From positions 1 to 43,416 of the forward strand of contig JAHEEI010000002.1 in assembly GCA_024640785.1 (NCBI GenBank): a DNA stretch of 43,416 nt. Reading direction: 5' to 3'. Of this stretch, positions 25,016 to 39,202 are shown in pieces; position 1 is the first letter of the stretch, and every line of letters starts with the position of its first letter. Below the pieces are notes generated by a model. The model ran no database searches, had not been told where the DNA came from, and worked only from the letters and a program-made list of their open reading frames with translations. The position numbers and the translations under genes were made by a program. This DNA comes from Pseudomonadota bacterium. GTDB lineage: Bacteria; Desulfobacterota; WTBG01; CAIYCZ01; CAIRTM01.

Positions 25016-25639
25016 TTATTCTGGTTTATTTGACGTCTCAAAACAAGGAACACAGAATTCTTTGCCGTTAAAGTTTTCCAGCTTTGTTGCCATCGTCATC
25101 TCCCCACACTTTTCACAGGCTTTTGAAGAAGCAATCTCTGCATATTCCGGCATCACAAACGCAGTCTCTTTTGTTTCAAATATATCTATAAAAGGTTTTG
25201 CCAGCAAATCCATTGATTTTAAAAATTTCTGGCGCTTTTTCTGCTCTTTGGTTGCCATTCCTGAAGCAACCGCTTGTTCCAAGACATCAAACTCTTCTTT
25301 TTCTTTTCCCAGATAACGGTAAAAACTCTTTCTGGAAAAACGGTATGCTTTATTCTGATTTCTGCTGATTACGGTATATGCATTTTTGCCGTAGTTTTTT
25401 ATAATAAGGTTTCCCTTGCCGGAGGTGGTTCCCAAAACTATTTGCAAGGCGTCAACAGAGCAGGAATCGTTTTCACAAACCGCGACAACTTCTTCATCTC
25501 CTGACCGGTTCAACTTAAGAATGCGCATGGCTTCTTTAGAAACCCGATATCCGTAAATAATACCCGGACAAAGGTGCCCATGAAAACGAATGCATTCTTT
25601 AAGGTCTTCTGGAACTTCTGTGTTATTTAAAACATCCAT
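25016..25639 (-). CDS. FmdE-family protein with C-terminal zinc ribbon
   Basis: N-terminal FHGHLCPG...G motif typical of the FmdE domain, plus a C-terminal CEKCGE...CVPC zinc-ribbon. The ATG directly abuts the yggS stop (TAAATG), and AGGAAG lies 6 nt upstream. Confidence 0.8.
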   Translation of the reverse strand: MDVLNNTEVPEDLKECIRFHGHLCPGIIYGYRVSKEAMRILKLNRSGDEEVVAVCENDSCSVDALQIVLGTTSGKGNLIIKNYGKNAYTVISRNQNKAYRFSRKSFYRYLGKEKEEFDVLEQAVASGMATKEQKKRQKFLKSMDLLAKPFIDIFETKETAFVMPEYAEIASSKACEKCGEMTMATKLENFNGKEFCVPCFETSNKPE

Positions 25640-26314
25640 TTAATACTTCCTATCGCCGAAAACCACTCTGCCTAATCGGATCATGTTCGAGCCCTCTTCG
25701 ATAGCAACCTGATAGGACTCGGACATTCCCATTGAAAGCGTTTTCAGGTTAACACCAGGCAGATCAAGCTCCTTTATATTATCAAAAAATTTTTTTGCTT
25801 TTCTAAAATAGGGTCTGCTGTCTTCCGGATCGCTGGTCATGGGCCCCATTGTCATCAAACCCTCTACAGACATATGTTCGAGCCGGGTCATACTGATAAC
25901 AAGATCTTCAACTTTTTCAAAATCGGGATCAACGCCTTTTTTAGATACTTCCTGTCCGGTGTTTATTTCAACAAATACAGGCATTATTTTTCCGTCGGCA
26001 GATGCCCTATAGTTCAGGGCTTCTGCTTGATTAAAAGATGAAAGGGTCTGCACCAGGTCAAACACTTTTAACGCACGTTTCATCTTATTTTTCTGAAGAT
26101 CTCCAATCATGTGCCATCTGACTTTTTTGGCGCTCTCTCCAAGCATCGCTACCATTTTCTCTGCTTCCTGCAAGTAGTTCTCGCCAACATCTGTTGCACC
26201 GGCATTAATAACCTCTTTTACCTCTTCAGGTGTTCTTGTCTTTGCCGCCAGAACAATGGTCACATATTCTGGAATTTCGTTTCTTATTTTTTGATATTGT
26301 TCAGTAATTCCCAT
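25640..26314 (-). CDS. yggS: YggS-family pyridoxal-phosphate homeostasis protein
   Basis: Strings LAAKTRTPEEV...GATDVGENYLQE, HMIGDLQKNK and LSMGMSESY...GSNMIRLGRVVFG match YggS/PROSC. I prefer the ATG at 26314. The longest ORF starts at a TTG at 26326. Confidence 0.85.
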   Translation of the reverse strand: MGITEQYQKIRNEIPEYVTIVLAAKTRTPEEVKEVINAGATDVGENYLQEAEKMVAMLGESAKKVRWHMIGDLQKNKMKRALKVFDLVQTLSSFNQAEALNYRASADGKIMPVFVEINTGQEVSKKGVDPDFEKVEDLVISMTRLEHMSVEGLMTMGPMTSDPEDSRPYFRKAKKFFDNIKELDLPGVNLKTLSMGMSESYQVAIEEGSNMIRLGRVVFGDRKY

Positions 26315-26990
26315 AGTTTTTCTCAAAAAATCACAAGGAACAGTGCTGCGTCATGTAAAGAAGAGTCAAAAGGAAAGTTTCGTTCTTTGACTGAAAGACT
26401 ATACCGGCTTTACGCGCTTCTTCTGCAATCAGAAGGTTAACCACATCCCGCCTCTAAAATATTTGACGCTTCTAAAAGGTGACCTTTACTTCTAAATATA
26501 TCTCAAGGAAGAACTCTTTGTCAAGAATGACCCCTCGGAACAACCCATCAACATAACTATCTATTACAACTTTTTTTCTTATCTGCAACAGCCCGGTTTC
26601 CAGACCCGGTCTTTGCCCCGGTAATTTCCGAGAACATCTCAATATATCTGGGAAAGTTAACCAGTAGAATATTCGAACCGAACTCGCTAACGCTTGATCC
26701 TGTAAAGTGTACAAGTATCTCACGCGAGGAGGTGGTGGGGTTGATTCTTGCCGGGTATTTTTTATGTACCCCCCTTCCTGATCTATCTGCAGAAGAAGGG
26801 TTGTTTTCGGTCAGTTGTCCTGTTTTTCTTTCATTAGGAACTTAAGAAGCCTTTAAAACTTTCATCCAATAAAAACTAACCTTATCATGTTTTTTAACCA
26901 TTTATAATTACTCAAGGTTTGATCCCAAACATCAAAATCAAGATACACATTCTAAATTTGAAGTAATTTAATTTTATTAGCAAAACAGCA

Positions 26991-27821
26991 TTACTCCCGA
27001 AAAATAACGGTCCCGGCATTTTCTCCCTTAAGAGCCCGGGTAATATTACCCGGTTCCATTCCATTAATAATATAAATTTTTTCGATAACCTCACTGTTTT
27101 GCAGTATTTCCAGGCAAGGACGTTCAATAACAAGATCGTCCAGATCCTTTTCTAATAAAGCCTTTGCACCAATTTCCGAGATAAACTCAGCATCCGGATC
27201 TTTTTTAGGATCATCTGTATACAAACCCTTTTCATCTTTAATAAAAATACAGCTTCTAGCACCGGTCAGGTCAGCTAAAAGAACTGTGCCAACGTCAGTA
27301 CGATGACTTGGGATGCGGCCCCTTGCCGGGGGAATGGCAAAATAATCATAGGGTGGCATACCATGTGTAACCGGTATACAGCCCTGGGAATAGTAGTTGG
27401 GCAATTTTACAAGGTCATCGTGTGCAATTTGCACTCCTCCCCAAGGGCCGAGTAGGGTAGATACCAGCAGAGAATTCTGTTCTGAAATGGTTGTTCCAAA
27501 ACGAGCAATAATACCCGTAGGCATACCAAGTTCAAGACCTATAGAGTAAATGTGTCTACTACGGGTACCGCCTCCCGCAGTAAGAAGCATTTTATATTCT
27601 GACTTATTTTCAACAATCTCCTCAATAATTCTCGGCAGAGCCTTAGCTCCCCGGTCACATATGGATTGCCCACCGATCTTTAAGATATTAAGATCAGGAA
27701 ACATCCTCCTTTGCGGCACCAGCTGCATTTCATCTATGAGTGATTTACTGACCAGACTTTCTCCCATCAGCTTACTTTTAACATGCAAACGCTTGCCGTC
27801 TTTTTCACGTATCAATGCCAT
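26991..27821 (-). CDS. Amino-acid-kinase-fold protein resembling molybdenum storage protein subunits (MosA/MosB-like)
   Basis: Strings KIGGQS, TAGGGTRSRH, GMPPY, RTDVG, FIKDEKGLYTDDPKK and INGMEPGNITRALKGENAGTVI parallel my recollection of Azotobacter vinelandii MosB/MosA. They do not fit UMP kinase. AAGGAAG serves as the Shine-Dalgarno sequence. Confidence 0.7.
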   Translation of the reverse strand: MALIREKDGKRLHVKSKLMGESLVSKSLIDEMQLVPQRRMFPDLNILKIGGQSICDRGAKALPRIIEEIVENKSEYKMLLTAGGGTRSRHIYSIGLELGMPTGIIARFGTTISEQNSLLVSTLLGPWGGVQIAHDDLVKLPNYYSQGCIPVTHGMPPYDYFAIPPARGRIPSHRTDVGTVLLADLTGARSCIFIKDEKGLYTDDPKKDPDAEFISEIGAKALLEKDLDDLVIERPCLEILQNSEVIEKIYIINGMEPGNITRALKGENAGTVIFRE

Positions 27822-27985: not shown

Positions 27986-28216
27986 CTATACTTCTACATC
28001 ATCCTGACTTTTGCCCTTCTTTTTATCCACCTCAAGAAAAACAAGATCAGCACCTAATGTTTTGGCAATCTGGTCCAGCTCCTGTTTTCGAAGGTGTTTC
28101 GCATAGACCTTCATGTCAATTCCGGCAATAGCTACGAGTTTGTAACGAGGAGACTTCTTGCCCGATCCGATTTTTGTACGTTCACGATAGAAAATTTTTG
28201 CTTTTTTTGCTGGCAT
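27986..28216 (-). CDS. Small basic hypothetical protein (76 aa; 81 aa if the upstream ATG at 28231 is used)
   Basis: GGAGG lies 8 nt upstream of the ATG at 28216. The protein is Lys/Arg-rich (PAKKAKIFYRERTKIGSGKK...) with an acidic C-terminus. It lies 164 nt upstream of the MosB-like gene on the same strand. No family recognised. Confidence 0.5.
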   Translation of the reverse strand: MPAKKAKIFYRERTKIGSGKKSPRYKLVAIAGIDMKVYAKHLRKQELDQIAKTLGADLVFLEVDKKKGKSQDDVEV

Positions 28217-28675
28217 CAGGTTTCCCTCCATTAATTAGAATTAGCAGAATTTTTAAACGGAACTTCTGTTGAAAATTTAACAGCACTTTCTAAGTGTGTA
28301 TAACGATAATGCAAGATTGTCAAATATAATAAGTTTATGGTTAAAATCTTTAAATTTATTGATTTTATTTAATAATTTTGATCAGGAAGAGGGAATTTGA
28401 ATCCCCTTTCTATGATTTTTTCATAAATTTAAATCAACTAGTTACAAGATTTAAAATTATTATTTTTTCCGTCACTAATTCATTTTTTGAATTTGGAAGA
28501 AAAATATCAATTAAGTTATTATTATACCTTAACCTGTTGCTCTCCCATTCGAACAGAACTCACATAGTATCCGGACGCACCTCCATCTGCATCCGTTCCG
28601 ATAATGGGCCTGAGTCAATATGGCTAAATAAATAATCGCTCTATAACTAATATTGGTGCAACTATGTGGAGCAGG

Positions 28676-29488
28676 TCATTTTGGAATTGCTACTGCTTTA
28701 AAACCATATTCTCTAAGAATTTTTTGGCCTTTAGGAGATAAAATATACAGCGCCAGCCGCCATGCTTCTTTAGAAGCTCCATCTCTAACTAAAAGGCCAT
28801 AATCGGCCCCTACAGAAAGCTCTTCAGGTATTCTGATAATTTTAAGGGTTTGAACTTCTTTTTGAGCTAAAACAGCATTGGTGCAATAAGTCAGGAACAC
28901 GTCAGCCTTCTTTTCACTCATTACCCATCCATATGGGTTGCGTCCATCAGGGGCCTTCTCACTATTTGGCCCGCCAGTCAGTTGAAGAGCTTTATTGGAA
29001 AGCTCTGTAAAGCTCCCGTCTTTTATCGTTTCTGCATTATGAAAAAGTTCCCACGCATAGTCTCCGCTTGGATCAGCTTTTGGGGTTGATGTGCCCACTT
29101 TAATATTCTTATCCATAAGAGTATTTAGTAAATTATCTGTAGTTAAATTTACATAAGGCTGCGCCAAGGCGCAAAGCTGATTACGGGCAAACAGAACAAC
29201 TGGACTTCCCCAACCTCCCGATACGAGTTTTTCGGGGTGTGCCATATTTGCAGAAGCAAAAACATCTGGCTTTTCACCTTGTTCAATTGCTTTTCTTAAA
29301 AGGCCACTTGGTCCGAACTTTGTAGTTACTTTTGTTTTATAGGCCTTTTCATAGGAAGCTACTGCATCTCCTAGCGCTGTTTTCAAGCTTCCTGCTGCAT
29401 AGAGCGTTAAAGAATCAGCTGATGCAGATAAAGGAATTAAAAAACAAACAAGAGTAACTAAGGCTGCTATATTTTGATATCTTCTCAT
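28676..29488 (-). CDS. modA: Periplasmic molybdate/tungstate-binding protein, ModA-like
   Basis: Signal peptide (MRRYQNIAALVTLVCFLIPLSASA), then LTLYAAGSLKTALGDAV...FGPSG.L...I.QG...DVFASAN, which is typical of ModA. GGAG lies 6 nt upstream of the ATG at 29488 (the longest ORF reaches 29500). A Moco-like riboswitch precedes the gene. Confidence 0.75.
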   Translation of the reverse strand: MRRYQNIAALVTLVCFLIPLSASADSLTLYAAGSLKTALGDAVASYEKAYKTKVTTKFGPSGLLRKAIEQGEKPDVFASANMAHPEKLVSGGWGSPVVLFARNQLCALAQPYVNLTTDNLLNTLMDKNIKVGTSTPKADPSGDYAWELFHNAETIKDGSFTELSNKALQLTGGPNSEKAPDGRNPYGWVMSEKKADVFLTYCTNAVLAQKEVQTLKIIRIPEELSVGADYGLLVRDGASKEAWRLALYILSPKGQKILREYGFKAVAIPK

Positions 29489-29617
29489 AATAGTCTCCAT
29501 TTTATTTTAGACACAACTTATATATTGGATGGATCTTGTTTTTAAATGTATGTTAATATTGCCAAGCAAAGCTAGTACAATATTTATAACCTTTTAATAA
29601 TCCGTATTTAATTTCAT

Positions 29618-29653: not shown

Positions 29654-29670
29654 CTCTTTGCTAGCAATTT

Positions 29671-29768
29671 TCTCCTTTTCAAATACGGGAGGCATGACCC
29701 TTTCGTTTCAAACCCTTAGGCCTTACGTCATAGGTTTTTCACCCTTAGACAAATAAGGCTCGGAGACA
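29671..29768 (-). promoter_or_regulatory. Moco/Tuco-riboswitch-like aptamer, copy A
   Basis: Minus-strand RNA: GUCUCCGAGCCUUAUUUGUCUAAGGGUGAAAAACCUAUGACGUAAGGCCUAAGGGUUUGAAACGAAAGGGUCAUGCCUCCCGUAUUUGAAAAGGAGA. It carries the CUCCGAGCC and GCCUCCC strings I associate with the Moco RNA motif. It has a closing stem UCUCC/GGAGA, an inner GGGU/ACCU hairpin and a UAUGAC/GUCAUG stem. It sits upstream of a Mo/W binding protein. Confidence 0.6.
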
Positions 29769-29825
29769 ATATTTAATTTTAAGTTATGTTTATAATTTTT
29801 TTTTACCTGCCTTGTATCCAATCCT

Positions 29826-31130
29826 TTAGAATTTAAAGATAAGATCAAGGGCCACATCGGTCTTATCATCTTCCGGACCGCGCACACTGTCCGTTATCCA
29901 GGTGGTTGCCGCAAACACTATCTGTGGATGAAACTTGTACTGGAGTGAAAACTTACTTCCACGACGGTTTGCCCCGCCAAAATTTGCATCAGCAAAATAA
30001 CCCACAACAGCATCGGGCTCTATCCGTGCATACTTGTACCCAAAGGCCCAGTCACCCTTTTCTTTAATCTTGCCGATTGAAAACCCAAGAGCATATGCAT
30101 AGTCGTTATCGTCACTGTCAGTATTTTTGGCGTAATCACCGTAAAGCTGAACCGGGATTCCGCAAAGCTTTGTATCCCAGAAGGAGGTTACATCAAAAAC
30201 CTTAAATCCGCCTTCGCCGCTGTTACCTTTATTTTTACTGCTTTTCCACTCAGTAAGAGTGTCCCAGTCTATGTTAGAAAAATCATAAAGCGTTGCTGCC
30301 AGAGTCCACTGGCTTTTTGCAAGATCCCAGGTATACCCCGTCTGATATCCATAAAGAGCGGCGTCATCAGACTCGGGGCTATAGCCTTCGTCATTGTTAT
30401 TGTTCTCGTCAATAACGAACTGTGCAAGGGTAATAAAGGGTTTGAATGTATCCGTCAGGTTAAAGACATATTTTTCATAAACGCCTTCGGGATTAAGATC
30501 AGCGTCCCAGACAATGTCCGTATGAACAAACGGATTCGGGACCTTTCCGCCTGCAAGCTCCAGACCTTTAAGCCAGTTGGGCCTGTAAAGTGCATAAGCA
30601 CGGTCGATCCAGATATCTTTTTCTGAAAAGGAATCATTAAAGGACTGATTTGTCGAAGTGCCAACGTTGCTATCTCCGGTGGCCAGACGCAGGACCACAT
30701 CCAGCTCATCACAGAGCTTCTTTGCAAAATTAAGCCTCAGCCTGAACCTGCCCCGGTGTTGGTCAGCCTTGTTGGTTCTGTTTACGATAGCTTCATATCT
30801 CAACCGGAAATCACCGCCGAACTTAATTCCCTTTAACCATTCGGGAACGGGCATGGTTTCTTCATTCACAAGCTCTGCCACAATACTCTTTATCTGCTCA
30901 CGATTCGCCGGCGAAACAACGTCAGCCGTCGGAGTTGCTGCCGAAGCCTTGTTCTGCAGGCTGTCAATGACCCGGTTCTGCTCTTGTATTTGCTTCTGCT
31001 GCTCTTGAATCATCTTCTCCATTTCAGCAAATTTTTTCATCAGTTCCGCATCTGACATAGAAAATCCCGGTCCACTGCAGACCAGAACATAGGAAAGTGC
31101 AAATATCATGATTTGTATACCTTTTTTCAC
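29826..31130 (-). CDS. Outer-membrane porin-like beta-barrel protein with N-terminal coiled coil
   Basis: GTG start 6 nt after GAGGAG. Signal peptide, then a Gln/Glu-rich coiled-coil segment (MKKFAEMEKMIQEQQKQIQEQNRVIDSLQ). Alternating aromatic/polar beta-strand patterns follow, and the C-terminus ends in Phe (...LDLIFKF). The gene starts 59 nt downstream of the tupA-like stop. Confidence 0.65.
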   Translation of the reverse strand: MKKGIQIMIFALSYVLVCSGPGFSMSDAELMKKFAEMEKMIQEQQKQIQEQNRVIDSLQNKASAATPTADVVSPANREQIKSIVAELVNEETMPVPEWLKGIKFGGDFRLRYEAIVNRTNKADQHRGRFRLRLNFAKKLCDELDVVLRLATGDSNVGTSTNQSFNDSFSEKDIWIDRAYALYRPNWLKGLELAGGKVPNPFVHTDIVWDADLNPEGVYEKYVFNLTDTFKPFITLAQFVIDENNNNDEGYSPESDDAALYGYQTGYTWDLAKSQWTLAATLYDFSNIDWDTLTEWKSSKNKGNSGEGGFKVFDVTSFWDTKLCGIPVQLYGDYAKNTDSDDNDYAYALGFSIGKIKEKGDWAFGYKYARIEPDAVVGYFADANFGGANRRGSKFSLQYKFHPQIVFAATTWITDSVRGPEDDKTDVALDLIFKF

Positions 31131-31189
31131 TCTGCTCTCCTCTTCTTATTAATGGTTTATATTATATTTTAAATTATATATTTAAATGC

Positions 31190-32002
31190 CTATTTAATAG
31201 ACATCGGAACAAATAGCGGCTGGTTGAATTTTTCCTTGCCGAACTCACGGATTATTTCCTGTCCCTGAATTGAGGTGATCCACCCGATAAGAGCCATTGC
31301 ATGAATATACTTTACATGGGCATGTTTTGCAGGATTAACCGCGATTATACCATATGGATTATACAGCTCCGGATCACCCTCACACAAGACCGGAAGGCTT
31401 ATCTTCTTTGAAAAAGCCAGAAAAGTGCCCCGGTCTGCCAGGGTGTAGGCTTTTTTTTCATCTGCAATCGTTAAGACCAAGCCCATGCCCTGACCCGCCT
31501 CCTGGTACCACTGGCCTTTGGCGGATATACCCGCTTTTTCCCAGATCCTTTTCTCTTTTTTATGGGTCCCTGAATCATCTCCCCGTGAAATAAAAGGCGC
31601 CTTGGCTTCGGCAATCTTTTTAAATGCCAGGGCGGCATCTTTCATACCTTTTATCCCTGCAGGATCATCTTCAGGCCCGACAATCACAAAGTCGTTATAC
31701 ATGACATCTCTGCGGTTAACTCCAAACCCTGCGTCTACAAATTTGTCTTCTGCCTCTCTGGCATGGACAAAAACAATATCCACATCACCGTTTTCACCAA
31801 GTTTTAATGCTTTGCCCGTTCCCACAGCAATAACATCAACTTTTATATCAAACATTTTTTCAAATGGCGGAATAAGGGCCTCCAGAAGACCTGAATTGTC
31901 CGTGCTGGTGGTTGTCGACATCTTCAGTCTCTGTTCAGCATTTAAAATTCCTGAACAAAAAACAAGGATCAAAACAGTAAATGTTAATGCTTTCTTCTTC
32001 AT
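31190..32002 (-). CDS. tupA: Periplasmic tungstate-binding protein, TupA-like
   Basis: Signal peptide, then the MSTTTSTDNSGLLEALIPPFEK and VFVHA...MYNDFVIVGP..DPAGI patterns typical of TupA-type binding proteins. GGAGGAG lies 5 nt upstream of the ATG. Confidence 0.75.
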   Translation of the reverse strand: MKKKALTFTVLILVFCSGILNAEQRLKMSTTTSTDNSGLLEALIPPFEKMFDIKVDVIAVGTGKALKLGENGDVDIVFVHAREAEDKFVDAGFGVNRRDVMYNDFVIVGPEDDPAGIKGMKDAALAFKKIAEAKAPFISRGDDSGTHKKEKRIWEKAGISAKGQWYQEAGQGMGLVLTIADEKKAYTLADRGTFLAFSKKISLPVLCEGDPELYNPYGIIAVNPAKHAHVKYIHAMALIGWITSIQGQEIIREFGKEKFNQPLFVPMSIK

Positions 32003-32200: not shown

Positions 32201-32218
32201 ATAAAATATTCCAGTCTT

Positions 32219-32318
32219 TTTCCCTTGTCCGAATACGGGAGATATGATCTTTTCAAATCATACCCTTACGGCCACTTCTCATAGCCTTTAAAGGCCTTAG
32301 ATACACGGCTTTAGGAAA
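32219..32318 (-). promoter_or_regulatory. Moco/Tuco-riboswitch-like aptamer, copy B (divergent core)
   Basis: Minus-strand RNA: UUUCCUAAAGCCGUGUAUCUAAGGCCUUUAAAGGCUAUGAGAAGUGGCCGUAAGGGUAUGAUUUGAAAAGAUCAUAUCUCCCGUAUUCGGACAAGGGAAA. It has the same order of elements as copy A (AGCC, UCUAAGG, hairpin, UAUGA, GGCC, UAAGGGU, CUCCCGUAUU). Base pairs are compensatory in the closing stem (UUUCC/GGAAA against UCUCC/GGAGA) and in the first hairpin (GGCC/GGCU against GGGU/ACCU). Confidence 0.5.
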
Positions 32319-32338
32319 TTATTTTGTATGTAATGAAA

Positions 32339-32945: not shown

Positions 32946-33491
32946 CTAAGAAAGCCTTAAAGAGTTTAAACCAAAAGAGCTTCTCAAGCTGTTAACAGCA
33001 TTGAAAATATCCTTATCAGAGCTAATAACTTTGTTCAGTTTTCCAGTTGAGGAGTTAAGCCTTTTGGAGGCCTCGCTAAGTTTTCCTTTTGAAGTATAAA
33101 TGGAATCAAGAAGTACCGCACAATAAAGGGGATAAAGTCTGTTTTTAGAATTAATTTTTTTTATACCCTCTTTTAAAAAGAGCGCGGCTGCCTCCGGGTG
33201 GACTTTAAATCCGGTTGAAGAAAAATCTTTTCTCACCTGAAGTGCGATTTTCTTTTTTAGACGTTTTAATGCTTTTTCTTTGTTGTCAGACTGGGATCTG
33301 CTTTCCTCTGCTACTGTTGAAATAGTTGTTCTTTTATGCGTTGCTCTGACAGCACTGTATGTCCTGTTTTTTTTCTGCCCTCCCGGACCTGAAGCCATAT
33401 AAAACTCCAACCTGCAGGAACACTCAAACGCTTTATCTTCTAAAGTAATAAACGGATATGCTCCATCATAAAAAACTGAAACTTCTTTCAT
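32946..33491 (-). CDS. GGQ-motif peptide-chain-release-factor-like protein (ArfB/RF-1-domain-like) with C-terminal extension
   Basis: ASGPGGQKKNRTYSAVR contains the GGQ motif at nt 33375-33383. A basic helix (KALKRLKKKIALQVRK) follows, then about 80 further residues. AGGAGA lies 7 nt upstream of the ATG. Confidence 0.7.
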   Translation of the reverse strand: MKEVSVFYDGAYPFITLEDKAFECSCRLEFYMASGPGGQKKNRTYSAVRATHKRTTISTVAEESRSQSDNKEKALKRLKKKIALQVRKDFSSTGFKVHPEAAALFLKEGIKKINSKNRLYPLYCAVLLDSIYTSKGKLSEASKRLNSSTGKLNKVISSDKDIFNAVNSLRSSFGLNSLRLS

Positions 33492-37300: not shown

Positions 37301-39202
37301 TTAGTCAAGCCCCAGTTTTTTCAGGGTTTCTTTTTCGGGCAGGCCGGTCTCAAGATTCCAGCCTCGCAGCGCATAATATTCATCCATCATCTTTTCAAAC
37401 GCTTTTTTATCAACAGCCTTTCCTTTTCTGGAGGTTACTTCCGCACCCTTGCCTGGAAGAAAAAGCTCGGGATTATACATGCCAAAAACATCCGCAATCA
37501 TCTCTTCACGTTCAATAAACATAAAATCCGGCAACACATCACTTTTGCGGCCTTTTCTTCCTTCACGAACAAGGATCAGCCTGTTCAGGGTAAACAGACG
37601 GTTTCCAGTAAGATCATACTCCTCCTCACCAAATACCTTCCCCGTAACTGCGGAAAATATCTGGGCCTCTAAGGTCGGGTCGCCCACATGGTCTGCACTG
37701 TCGGCAACATCATAAACAGGCCAGGCAAAATCACACAAATTTAAAGACTCCTTCAAATACTGCCTGTTTTGAACCTTAAACGCTGCAAGGGCCTTGCCTT
37801 CATAAGTTGAAAAATCAACTGCATGCTCACTGCCCCAGAATGCTTTAGCAATATTTTTCAAGACCTCTGTGGATACATAGCTCTTTTCACCCTTGGACAG
37901 ATACCACAGAGCCCACTTGGTCAGAGGTTCGCATATTTCATGCAGTTCGGTAATAAAAGGCCTTGGCTCTGTGGCATAAATAACCGCGGACATGGTGAAC
38001 ACCTTGGGCCCGTAGGCAATTGCACGTCCGCTTTCTGTAAGCATGTTAGCTGTAATGCTTGCTGACTTCTCGCCAAAGATTTTTGATGCGCGAAGCACTC
38101 CCTGAGAAAGAATTTCCCCAAAACCATCCCTGATGCAAATTTTCTTAAGCACTTCCTCCAGGAAATCCCTGCTCCCCATCTGTGAAAAGTCTAAACCCGT
38201 TTCTTTTTGATTAATTATTCCCTGCTGTACGCACTGATCAACCCACATCAGCAGAAAGACCATATCTAGAGCACACACCCCAAAATCATTTGCCAGCATT
38301 GGAGCGTCAAAGCTTGCCTCAGTGAATTTGCCGTGCAGTTTTTTATCCCACATCATGTAAAAATTTCCAATTTGGCATTTCCGGATATCCTCTGTTCCGA
38401 CAGGACTTCTGTGTAGAGACCGCCAGCATCCTTGGGGACAGCCACTGCAGTGAACCCGTTTCACCACTTCAGAACCGGGAAGTATAATCGGGTTATTAAA
38501 GAGATGAAAATAACCCTTACCCATCATTGCTTTAAGCCGGGTCCTGATAGCTTTTATTTTCTCATCATCAGCTGCAACAACCTTTCCTGTTCCATGCACT
38601 GTAATCGCTTTTAATTTTTTTGATCCCATAATCGCGCCAAACCCCATAGATGCGGTACTGCCTTCATCAGAAAATAAAATCGCAAAACGGATCAGACCTT
38701 CTCCGGCTGGCCCAATAGACAGAATACTGTGTTTATTGCTGGTTTCACCGTGAAGGAGCTCACGGGTTTTAAAGTTACCCAGACCCCACAAATGCCTGGC
38801 ATCTCTTATTTCCACATTCTCGTTCTCAATGCTTAAATAAACAGGATTTTCTGCCCGGCCTTTAATAATTATACCGTCATATCCAGACTTTTTAAGGACC
38901 ACCGCAATATGACCACCCATATTGGCACTTACAAAGGTTTCAGGATAGACACAGGGTGATTTTCCACAGGCCAGCAGCCTGGGAGCGGATGGGGCTTTGG
39001 TTCCAGCCAAAGGTCCTGTCATTAATATCAGGGGGTTCTCAGGGTCTAATGCGTCAGCCTTCCCCGAAGCCATATCCCAGTACAGTTTTTGCCCAATTCC
39101 AAGCCCGCCAATATAGGTATCTGAGTAGTCTTTGGTATCCAGAAACTCAATATTACCCGAAGTAAGGTCAACTGAGATTATCTTTCCTGCCCAACCAAGC
39201 AT
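37301..39202 (-). CDS. Aldehyde:ferredoxin oxidoreductase-family enzyme (tungsten/molybdopterin-dependent)
   Basis: N-terminal GWAGKIISVDLTSG, the AOR family [4Fe-4S] motif CSGCPQGC, and a length of 633 aa. AAGGAG lies 7 nt upstream of the ATG. Confidence 0.88.
   Translation of the reverse strand: MLGWAGKIISVDLTSGNIEFLDTKDYSDTYIGGLGIGQKLYWDMASGKADALDPENPLILMTGPLAGTKAPSAPRLLACGKSPCVYPETFVSANMGGHIAVVLKKSGYDGIIIKGRAENPVYLSIENENVEIRDARHLWGLGNFKTRELLHGETSNKHSILSIGPAGEGLIRFAILFSDEGSTASMGFGAIMGSKKLKAITVHGTGKVVAADDEKIKAIRTRLKAMMGKGYFHLFNNPIILPGSEVVKRVHCSGCPQGCWRSLHRSPVGTEDIRKCQIGNFYMMWDKKLHGKFTEASFDAPMLANDFGVCALDMVFLLMWVDQCVQQGIINQKETGLDFSQMGSRDFLEEVLKKICIRDGFGEILSQGVLRASKIFGEKSASITANMLTESGRAIAYGPKVFTMSAVIYATEPRPFITELHEICEPLTKWALWYLSKGEKSYVSTEVLKNIAKAFWGSEHAVDFSTYEGKALAAFKVQNRQYLKESLNLCDFAWPVYDVADSADHVGDPTLEAQIFSAVTGKVFGEEEYDLTGNRLFTLNRLILVREGRKGRKSDVLPDFMFIEREEMIADVFGMYNPELFLPGKGAEVTSRKGKAVDKKAFEKMMDEYYALRGWNLETGLPEKETLKKLGLD

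Follow-up and report, generated by a model that had tools for sequence, protein, structure and literature searches.

MosL, a single-gene relative of the molybdenum-storage protein with a conserved small partner in a tungsten-leaning gene context

MosL, our own label for a single-subunit branch of the molybdenum-storage protein (MoSto) family, belongs to this family and not to the UMP kinases. It is encoded by one gene within the 43,416-nucleotide stretch of bacterial DNA analysed here (the window), is preceded by a conserved gene for a small basic protein, and lies in a molybdenum/tungsten gene context that leans to tungsten. The best explanation, to which we give about even chances, is that MosL represents a distinct and conserved branch of MoSto that acts, together with its small partner, as a homomeric, ATP-driven complex for the handling or storage of tungstate or molybdate. 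The relevant features of the window are compiled in Table 1.

Table 1. Features of the window around the mosL cassette
Feature	Positions	Strand	Basis or remark
MosL, MoSto-like (MosB-like) amino-acid-kinase-fold protein, 276 aa, single copy	26991..27821	-	ORF, phmmer, AlphaFold/Foldseek
Small basic partner protein, 76 aa, pI 9.9	27986..28216 (ATG at 28216; mechanical ORF to 28231)	-	Conserved upstream gene
Region upstream of the small-ORF/MosL cassette, conserved (5' leader or promoter)	28232..28337	-	DNA similarity to L001
ModA-type molybdate/tungstate periplasmic binding protein	28676..29500	-	Pfam SBP_bac_11 2.5e-45; NCBIfam NF002917 382 bits (cut-off 264)
Moco/Tuco riboswitch aptamer without P3 stem, upstream of modA	29656..29777	-	RF01055 77.9 bits
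Porin_5-type outer-membrane porin, encoded between modA and the tupA-like gene	29826..31130	-	Pfam PF16930 3.7e-50
TupA-like tungstate-binding protein	31190..32002	-	Pfam PBP_like_2 2.6e-48
Second Moco/Tuco riboswitch aptamer without P3, upstream of the tupA-like gene	32206..32328	-	RF01055 60.9 bits
YggS-family PLP protein, downstream on the same strand, candidate system member	25640..26326	-	
FmdE-like protein with C4 zinc finger, downstream on the same strand, candidate system member	25016..25639	-	
Aldehyde:ferredoxin oxidoreductase (AOR) family protein	37301..39202	-	Pfam AFOR_N 5.2e-63, AFOR_C 1.1e-47

Family membership and fold

An ATG-to-stop open reading frame spans exactly the mosL interval, and its start codon is preceded by an AAGGAAG Shine-Dalgarno sequence at a spacing of 6 nt. 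The original prediction had described the product as an amino-acid-kinase-fold protein tracking MosB and MosA, the two MoSto subunits of Azotobacter, and had suggested a comparison with these subunits and with UMP kinase; both the description and the comparison turned out in favour of MoSto. All motif strings quoted at the time (KIGGQS, GGGTRSRH, GMPPY, RTD, FIKDEKGLYTDDPK and NGMEPGNITRALKGENAGT) are found in the translation, and the Pfam AA_kinase model matches at 4.4e-21. In phmmer searches of the PDB, MosB (E 8.8e-61, 209 bits, residues 16-273; 40% identity) and MosA (E 6e-42, 147 bits; 34% identity) were far ahead of the best UMP kinase (9e-9), whose alignment was restricted to the C-terminal lobe (residues ~162-273). 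With the AlphaFold model of MosL (pLDDT 81) as the query, Foldseek placed MoSto chains at ranks 1-15 among PDB structures (TM 0.68-0.75), followed by UMP kinase at 3e-14. In full-length sequence and in fold alike, MosL is thus more similar to MosA/MosB than to other amino-acid-kinase families.

The same data bear on the idea that MosL might be a metabolic kinase without any role in metal handling, for instance a paralogue of UMP kinase, an isopentenyl phosphate kinase, or a carrier-protein-dependent LysZ/LysW-type kinase whose carrier would be the small protein. Its fold is that of the AA_kinase superfamily, and some members of its clade have been named uridine or uridylate kinase by NCBI pipelines. 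Yet the enzyme-family models all scored far below their curated cut-offs, namely pyrH_arch (55.8 bits, cut-off 158) and pyrH_bact (35.5, cut-off 243.9) among the NCBIfam equivalogs, IPPK (41 vs 120), proB (23 vs 186) and aspartate kinase (19 vs 209). Besides, UMP kinase alignments cover merely the C-terminal ATP lobe, and in MosL the nucleotide-site region is replaced by a MoSto-specific GMPPY...HRTD insertion common to MosA and MosB. Given the sub-threshold scores and the confined alignment, we rejected a generic UMP kinase. As for the LysW type, many homologues of the small partner protein carry an acidic C-terminal tail (..EVEV, ..VEVKD) with a loose resemblance to LysW, whereas this tail is missing in many others (..KKSKSRK, ..GEKKMK); the cassette is not accompanied by LysX/Y/J/K-type genes, and its neighbours are molybdenum/tungsten genes. 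A LysW-like carrier role of the small protein was likewise dismissed, because its C-terminus is variable and often basic and no LysX-type or pathway genes recur in the 80 related loci. All in all, we regard a metabolic kinase as improbable.

A single gene and its small partner

At E<=1e-10, 3396 database proteins match MosL. The best 120 of these 3396 are all 275-283 residues long (nearly all 275-276) and 75-89% identical to it. Members of the MosL clade share 69-90% identity across Syntrophus, Syntrophorhabdus, Smithella, Desulfonema and others, with 90 of the 276 residues being invariant among 81 members, including two clade-specific cysteines (C55 and C236). The hosts are mostly Thermodesulfobacteriota, comprising syntrophs and sulfate reducers, which are strict anaerobes.

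That mosL occurs as a single copy had been anticipated, and this holds: a tblastn search with the protein query yielded no second copy in the 43-kb window, and none of the 80 related loci harboured a paralogue within ±10 kb. Other MoSto-like clades (P0244, P0248, P0254) have an adjacent AA_kinase paralogue in each sampled locus, and paralogue adjacency is also seen for the read-through fragments P0353 and P0261.

MosL could, in principle, be the beta subunit of a canonical heteromeric MoSto whose alpha partner is encoded outside the 43-kb window. It is indeed closer to MosB than to MosA in both bit score and identity, and the paralogue search covered the window and the ±10 kb flanks of the related loci. 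However, the paired genes lie side by side both in Azotobacter and in each of the three loci sampled from the other clades, as opposed to 0/80 loci here, and the constant neighbour of mosL is the small protein instead of a paralogue. Moreover, the MosL clade mixes alpha-like (N-terminal arm residues H13/S16, H134) with beta-like features. A separately encoded alpha partner therefore appears very improbable to us. In a neighbour-joining tree (200 bootstraps), a clade of the window protein with P0241 and P0243 was supported at 88%, while deep nodes reached only 2-37%. The MosL clade might be either a pre-duplication form or the outcome of subunit loss.

Directly upstream of mosL, a small basic protein had been pointed out before and termed unrelated. 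The gene is there, but the qualifier did not stand: it immediately precedes mosL in the same orientation in 78 of the 80 related loci and is its most conserved neighbour, often at a distance of only 4-40 nt. The family comprises basic proteins of ~70 residues starting with MAGKIFYRER..., has 2138 homologues (all annotated as 'hypothetical') and is tandemly duplicated in seven loci. In the window, a GGAGG Shine-Dalgarno sequence precedes the second ATG of the open reading frame. The protein has a charge of ~ +8.6, and F9, R11, R13, P23, H41, R43 and E46 are invariant. Neither Pfam nor NCBIfam models matched it, the best PDB match (E 0.87) was spurious, and the AlphaFold monomer was poor (pLDDT 56). 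No homologue of the small protein was found in the paired-clade loci L082-L084 or in L081. Three apparent fusions with MosL (P0272, P0353, P0261) proved to be frameshifted or read-through fragments and not true fusions. Compared with the closest relative, L001, DNA similarity extends ~106 bp upstream of the small open reading frame and then ends; this leader contains promoter-like hexamers and matched no Rfam family.

Metal genes in the window and in relatives

The ModA-like and TupA-like genes, the two Moco/Tuco riboswitches, the FmdE-like gene and the AOR gene, which the original prediction had listed as neighbours, are all real. For the TupA-like protein, tung_bind_TupA was the sole NCBIfam match (245.7 bits, under the equivalog cut-off of 400), and the AOR-family protein scored 282 bits against the NCBIfam AOR model, likewise below its cut-off. 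As a member of a tungstoenzyme family, the latter is a likely user of the metal. In the alignments of both riboswitches the P3 positions are deleted, and the class of Moco/Tuco riboswitches without P3 correlates with tungsten cofactor metabolism (PMC2408646). The immediate neighbour of the cassette in the window is, however, the ModA-type gene and not tupA, which counts against our best explanation. A 444-bp gap separates this gene from the cassette, so the riboswitch need not co-regulate the latter. The gaps of 444, 164 and 664 bp at the cassette contained no known RNA family.

The context in relatives also leans to tungsten. At least eight loci (L025, L026, L029, L034, L043, L074, L012, L006), among them that of S. 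buswellii, share the gene order [HTH_17+PBP_like regulator]-tupA-tupA-tupB-tupC-P245-small-MosL, with the regulator not being present in all of them, and the binding proteins in this arrangement match only the TupA model. In S. buswellii, tupA-tupA-tupB-tupC lie directly upstream of the cassette and an AOR-family gene follows mosL. More broadly, TupA-like genes occur within 10 kb in 20 of the 80 related loci and FmdE-like genes in six, and of the 53 loci that span 12 kb or more, 33 contain a gene recognisable as coding for an Mo/W transporter, regulator or enzyme. Riboswitches were detected near the cassette in only one (L002) of seven scanned loci and in none of the seven directly upstream of the small open reading frame, so that direct control of the cassette by a Moco riboswitch in relatives was discarded.

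A third conserved gene had escaped the original prediction. P245 encodes a protein of ~245 residues present in 61 of the 80 relatives; it is absent from this window, and the composition of the MosL system thus varies, with P245 missing in about a quarter of the loci. It has weak similarity to the N-terminal kinase domain of TiaS (E 0.01 in the PDB, 1.3e-4 in NCBIfam).

Proposed function and comparison with known systems

By alignment, MosL keeps the beta-type ATP/molybdate site of MoSto. K48 corresponds to K-beta42, the residue mutated in PDB entry 6ris ('Kb42S variant'), and the methionine of the GMPPY string, M155, to M-beta149, reportedly a gate residue in MoSto. The K195-D196-E197-G-L-Y stretch aligns with the KDEDGLY..DP ATP motif of the beta subunit, its KDE being common to MosB and absent from MosA; K48, M155 and the whole K195-D196-E197-G-L-Y stretch are invariant across the 81 clade members. 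The alpha-subunit residues E-alpha129, H-alpha140 and H-alpha156, which are said to bind polyoxomolybdate clusters either covalently or on the threefold axis (a PDB title, '6h6w ... H156A', partly backs this for H-alpha156), align to A133, Y143 and D159 in MosL. MoSto clusters are covalently bonded to His and Glu side chains (PMC6294228); since the alpha-subunit ligands are not conserved, MoSto-like cluster chemistry is not implied for MosL. The N-terminal arm (RLHVKSKL) is alpha-like and highly conserved, yet residues 1-25 are predicted to be disordered in the monomer model (pLDDT <50), as expected of an arm that becomes ordered on assembly.

A beta-type ATP site in a protein that lacks the alpha-type covalent cluster ligands would also suit an enzyme that activates or delivers the oxyanion and does not store it, with ATP being used to phosphorylate or otherwise activate tungstate, in the manner of the 'molybdate kinase' half-reaction proposed for MosB, and the metal being handed to cofactor-insertion enzymes or the small protein instead of ending up as polyoxometalate clusters in a cage. 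In that case, P245 would contribute another ATP-consuming step in most genomes. The coupling of mosL to the small basic protein and P245 resembles a pathway, and the location of the cassette fits as well, with tupABC often immediately preceding it and, in S. buswellii, an AOR-family gene following it. On the other hand, the only characterised relatives of MosL are storage cages, and the similarity of P245 is weak, with the gene missing in the window and in about a quarter of the loci. Nor does Moco/Tuco biosynthesis, to our knowledge, include or call for an activated oxyanion, the substrates of MoeA being adenylylated MPT and free molybdate. We deem an activating or delivery enzyme somewhat unlikely.

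For the homomeric tungstate/molybdate complex that we favour, we infer how MosL assembles, that it binds metal and depends on ATP, and what its partner contributes. MoSto, an (alpha-beta)3 hexamer, has its fold in common with the UMP kinases, which assemble as homohexamers; by analogy, MosL most likely forms a homohexamer too, and each subunit would then fill both roles, having a beta-type ATP site as well as an alpha-like N-terminal arm. Its putative ATP site would comprise K48, the KDE-G-LY-DP adenine/ribose motif and G154-M155, the counterpart of the M-beta149 gate. The corresponding site of Azotobacter has been suggested to phosphorylate molybdate and force it through the cage wall. MosL may similarly capture tungstate (molybdate also being possible) in an ATP-dependent manner once it has been imported by Tup or Mod transporters, and the metal could then be sequestered or passed on for enzymes with a tungsten cofactor, for example AOR, BamB-type reductases and formate dehydrogenases. 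The invariant arginine and histidine residues of the small protein might bind the slightly acidic MosL or oxo-metal anions, and the protein might nucleate, cap or release the metal in place of the alpha subunit that is missing from the clade. Put in its most specific form, which we offer as a tentative proposal with less than even prospects, this would be a widespread module for tungsten homeostasis in anaerobic Thermodesulfobacteriota that consists of a homohexameric, ATP-driven MosL cage reserved for tungstate and, in lieu of the alpha subunit, a basic protein on which the polyoxotungstate deposit would nucleate or by which it would be gated, joined in most genomes by P245 as a putative ATPase resembling the TiaS kinase domain. 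If true, it would be the first tungsten-dedicated cluster store and may also mirror the ancestral, pre-duplication MoSto.

The family is large, with about 3400 sequences of near-uniform length and some 70-90% identity between orders, an architecture different from that of MoSto and a partner named in no database. Its hosts are known for their strong dependence on tungsten enzymes, among them AOR, W-formate dehydrogenase and BamB-type benzoyl-CoA reductase. Should MosL store or channel tungsten, this would account for the supply of a scarce metal in syntrophs and sulfate reducers, assign a function to two orphan families (the small protein and P245), and suggest a mode of action for a homomeric forerunner of the MoSto cage, the last remark being limited because the tree does not resolve whether the clade is ancestral.

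In the literature, MoSto figures as a peculiarity of a handful of nitrogen-fixing aerobes, and we found no publication on MoSto homologues in anaerobes or on a MoSto-type tungsten store. Compared with A. vinelandii MoSto (PDB 2OGX, 4F6T, 6GU5, 6RKD), MosL has the same fold and family (TM ~0.75) and shares the GMPPY...HRTD insertion and the N-terminal extension, has counterparts of K-beta42 and M-beta149 as well as the ATP motifs, and is likewise encoded among Mo/W uptake genes. Unlike MoSto, which is encoded by an adjacent alpha/beta pair, MosL stems from one gene, is just 34-40% identical to the MoSto subunits, has not kept the alpha ligands E129, H140 and H156, and possesses the invariant C55 and C236. 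It is accompanied by the small basic partner gene and usually P245, both of which canonical mosAB loci lack. While MoSto belongs to an aerobic diazotroph and a nitrogenase context, MosL is found mostly in Thermodesulfobacteriota anaerobes, in a context of TupABC and AOR-family genes that points to tungsten. MoSto itself also stores tungsten (PMC6448029), as the PDB titles of 2OGX and 7ZSE indicate.

UMP kinase (PyrH) belongs to the same superfamily and has the ATP-binding C-terminal lobe in common with MosL, and its homohexameric trimer of dimers is a likely template for a single-subunit assembly; its N-terminal substrate lobe is too dissimilar to be aligned by phmmer, and MosL has an extra N-terminal arm and loop insertion. 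Finally, Tub/Mop molbindins such as Eubacterium limosum Tub, which are encoded near Tup/Mod genes, have been proposed to buffer tungstate for tungstoenzymes in anaerobes, and Tub, a TOBE protein, is the sole physiologically defined tungsten store so far (PMC11980592). Pfam and NCBIfam searches detected no TOBE domain in MosL or the small protein. Tub has a fold unrelated to that of MosL, does not use ATP and binds 8 oxyanions per hexamer, as compared with ~100 atoms held as clusters in MoSto.

MosL as a member of the MoSto family

The ORF of MosL, the 276-aa protein resembling the Azotobacter molybdenum storage protein MoSto, was found as described in the original prediction, with every quoted motif string present in its translation and a Shine-Dalgarno sequence (AAGGAAG) 6 nt 5' of the start. 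Its only Pfam domain is AA_kinase (4.4e-21). Among all PDB sequences, the best match was the beta subunit of A. vinelandii MoSto (MosB; 8.8e-61 and 209 bits over residues 16-273), ahead of its alpha subunit (MosA; 6e-42, 147 bits); the top UMP kinase reached only 9e-9, over an alignment limited to residues 162-273. None of the NCBI curated enzyme models came near its cut-off, with pyrH_arch (55.8 against 158), pyrH_bact (35.5 against 243.9) and IPPK (41 against 120) all far below. Besides, the AlphaFold2 model of MosL (pLDDT 81, pTM 0.81) retrieved MoSto chains at ranks 1-15 of its PDB structure matches (E 6e-26 to 4e-21, TM 0.68-0.75), followed by UMP kinases (3e-14, TM 0.59). The sequence, curated-model and structure matches therefore make the predicted assignment to MoSto solid, and we rejected MosL as a generic kinase. 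That it is a kinase unrelated to metal, as the "uridine/uridylate kinase" label (NCBI) on some of its database matches would have it, strikes us as very improbable; many matches are labelled "molybdenum storage protein" (JGI), so the homology had already been tagged by annotation pipelines.

MosL is 40% identical to MosB and 34% to MosA, which share 44% with each other. Several clade-invariant residues are common to MosL and MosB, not MosA, namely G154-M155 of the GMPPY motif (aligned to beta148-149), K195-D196-E197, Q52-S53 and T175. K48, likewise invariant, corresponds to K-beta42, is common to both subunits and is the position altered in PDB 6ris ("Kb42S variant", entry title). Two residues of the N-terminal arm, H13 and S16, as well as H134 (alpha130), are common to MosL and MosA, not MosB. 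Residues 1-25 of MosL are highly conserved, yet predicted to be disordered in the monomer model, and resemble the arm of the MoSto alpha subunit, which Brunle reportedly saw, in 2019, becoming ordered over the beta ATP site. Beta-type catalytic features and an alpha-like arm in one protein thus fit a homomer with every subunit active. Of the 27 invariant residues specific to the clade (including Y143, K139 and K207), C55 and C236 occur in 81/81 members and are absent from MosA and MosB; C55 sits in the ATP loop (KIGGQSICDRG), and the two might make up a thiol, metal or redox site peculiar to the clade.

The alpha-subunit residues E129, H140 and H156, which we take to be cluster ligands, align to A133, Y143 and D159 of MosL. 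In MoSto, His and Glu bind octamolybdate covalently (PMC6294228), and an H156A variant has been deposited (PDB 6h6w). It is conceivable, if rather unlikely, that MosL is an oxyanion-activating or delivery enzyme that stores no cluster.

A conserved clade with a single MosL gene

In total, 3396 database proteins match MosL at E<=1e-10, the best 120 of them being 275-283 aa long (nearly all 275-276) and 75-89% identical. Among GTDB contigs (one genome per species), 282 stretches carry a relative; the best 80 (69-90% identity) come almost throughout from Thermodesulfobacteriota, such as Syntrophus buswellii, Syntrophorhabdus aromaticivorans, Smithella, Desulfonema magnum, Desulfosarcina and Desulfocapsaceae, and a few are placed in other groups, e.g. 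NC10 and Vecturithrix. Clustered at 50%, the MoSto-like superfamily is small (61 clusters below 1e-30), and the MosL clade, with 90/276 invariant positions, essentially occupies two of these, P0241 and P0243. Another superfamily representative, P0253 (732 aa), bears a MoSto-like domain, 39% identical to MosL, at the C-terminus of a hydrophobic, glycine-rich region of ~450 aa, probably a membrane domain; it may represent a family variant anchored to the membrane.

As anticipated, MosL is a single copy: tblastn found no second one in the 43-kb window, which makes up the whole contig, nor was any present within +-10 kb in the 80 related loci. Representatives of three other clades (P0244/L082, P0248/L083, P0254/L084) have an AA_kinase paralogue immediately adjoining the MoSto-like gene, as is the case in Azotobacter and in the read-through fragments P0353 and P0261. 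Within +-10 kb, the single-gene architecture is therefore a trait of the MosL clade. A canonical heteromer whose alpha subunit is encoded unlinked, elsewhere in the genome, is in our judgement highly unlikely. In a neighbour-joining tree of full-length cluster representatives with UMP kinase as outgroup, the only supported groupings were the window clade (88%), MosA with P0270 (100%) and MosB with P0249 (98%). Deep branching of this tree had no support, and the MosL clade may be ancestral or may have lost a subunit secondarily.

A small basic protein and P245 upstream of MosL

The small ORF preceding MosL had been regarded as unrelated, a view that we revise: it is the most constant neighbour of MosL, with a homologue upstream on the same strand in 78/80 loci, as a rule 4-150 nt before MosL begins. 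DNA similarity to L001, the nearest relative of the window, is limited to MosL, the small ORF and ~106 bp upstream of the latter; what is conserved is a cassette of two genes with a leader of its own. The small protein of the window truly starts at the second ATG (28216, preceded by GGAGG), giving 76 aa with a pI of 9.9 and a charge of +8.6. Its consensus is MAGKIFYRERxKVxEGEKKPRFKLVAVAGVDLKVYGKHLRKSELEQIAxAVGAELVLL before a variable charged tail, with F9, R11, R13, P23, H41, R43 and E46 invariant. The family (2138 members, every one "hypothetical") has no match in Pfam, NCBIfam or PDB. Its poor monomer model (pLDDT 56) might suit a protein that folds on its partner. In seven loci (L011, L014, L019, L023, L024, L027, L032), two small-protein genes stand in tandem 5' of MosL, one coding for 66-69 aa (MAGTIFYRERRKV...HLVAS...GGEKKMK) and the other for the usual ~70 aa, which hints at a heteromeric partner pair in some lineages.

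When the ORFs from the 80 loci were clustered, a third recurring gene emerged, the uncharacterised P245 (~245 aa; M..YIGFDDTD..YTSHNSSAC..DPGLC..HGGT.DGIIGAAAAVGL), directly upstream of the small ORF in 61/80 loci (e.g. L025:8991-9743 in S. buswellii) and absent from the window and L001. This family of ~3060 members has no Pfam entry; P245 shows a weak likeness to the kinase domain at the N-terminus of TiaS (PDB 3au7/4rvz; E 0.01, residues 1-160), and in NCBIfam matches methanogenesis marker 11 (5e-5) and TiaS (1.3e-4). No small-ORF homologue was found in the paired-clade loci L082-L084 or in L081, from the sister clade P0243 (56% identical). In L081, a P245 homologue (2-343) precedes the MoSto-like gene by 16 bp without any small ORF in the gap, so the small partner may be specific to the inner clade.

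Molybdenum and tungsten gene context, and a proposed role

The predicted TupA/ModA-like, FmdE-like and AOR genes and Moco-like leaders were all located in the window, in the minus-strand order riboswitch, TupA-like, porin, riboswitch, ModA-like, 444-bp gap, small ORF, MosL, 664-bp gap, YggS and FmdE-like, with the AOR gene 9.5 kb off.

Features of the window around MosL
Feature	Position	Strand	Remarks
MosL ORF	26991..27821	minus	ATG start, 276 aa
Moco-motif riboswitch, P3 stem missing	29656-29777	minus	precedes ModA-like gene
Moco-motif riboswitch, P3 stem missing	32206-32328	minus	precedes TupA-like and porin genes
Porin_5 outer-membrane porin	29826-31130 (29826-32002 with the TupA-like gene)	minus	between TupA-like and ModA-like genes, under Tuco-type riboswitch
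FmdE-domain protein	25016-25639	minus	C-terminal DksA/TraR-type C4 zinc finger; abuts YggS-family PLP gene
RF-1-domain protein	32946-33491	minus	181 aa; sole domain RF-1 (peptidyl-tRNA hydrolase, GGQ); PrfH-/ArfB-like sub-threshold matches

The porin may serve specifically to admit tungstate/molybdate through the outer membrane; the window holds no permease or ATPase gene for either binding protein. Six other loci also have an FmdE-like gene less than 10 kb from MosL. The RF-1-domain protein is probably a ribosome-rescue factor with no relation to MosL.

In relatives, the recurrent order is [HTH_17+PBP_like regulator]-tupA-tupA-tupB-tupC-P245-small-MosL; tup-P245-small-MosL is found in L025, L026, L029, L034, L043, L074, L012 and L006, the regulator not in all. 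In S. buswellii, both binding proteins match the TupA model only and the permease matches TupB, and MosL is directly followed (L025:11401-13918) by a 658-aa AOR-family protein (MRYAETGYNLEIDL...) and a ferredoxin-like protein, presumably resembling BamB/BamC of the tungsten-dependent class II benzoyl-CoA reductase. In Desulfocapsaceae loci, an MFS_MOT1 molybdate transporter adjoins MosL instead. At least one recognisable Mo/W gene accompanies MosL in 33/53 loci of at least 12 kb. The P3-less riboswitch class correlates almost perfectly with tungsten-cofactor metabolism (Regulski et al., PMC2408646) and has been proposed as a tungsten-cofactor sensor. The overall context leans towards tungsten, possibly alongside molybdate, which we keep as a candidate because of the ModA and MOT1 neighbours.

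We give even chances to the model with the best support, in which MosL forms a homohexameric, ATP-dependent MoSto-like complex for tungstate and possibly molybdate, with a cationic small partner. Tup or Mod systems would deliver the oxyanion, which the homohexamer would take up with ATP and either sequester or channel to tungstoenzymes; the strongly cationic small protein could bind either the metal-oxo anions or MosL itself, which is slightly acidic (pI 6.0).

We found no paper on MoSto homologues of anaerobes, a single-subunit form or the small partner, and a 2019 study stated that MoSto is without known homologues. The MosL family, whose function we infer throughout, is large, highly conserved, genomically coherent and directly testable. 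The sole characterised tungsten store, the TOBE protein Tub, is unrelated (PMC11980592).
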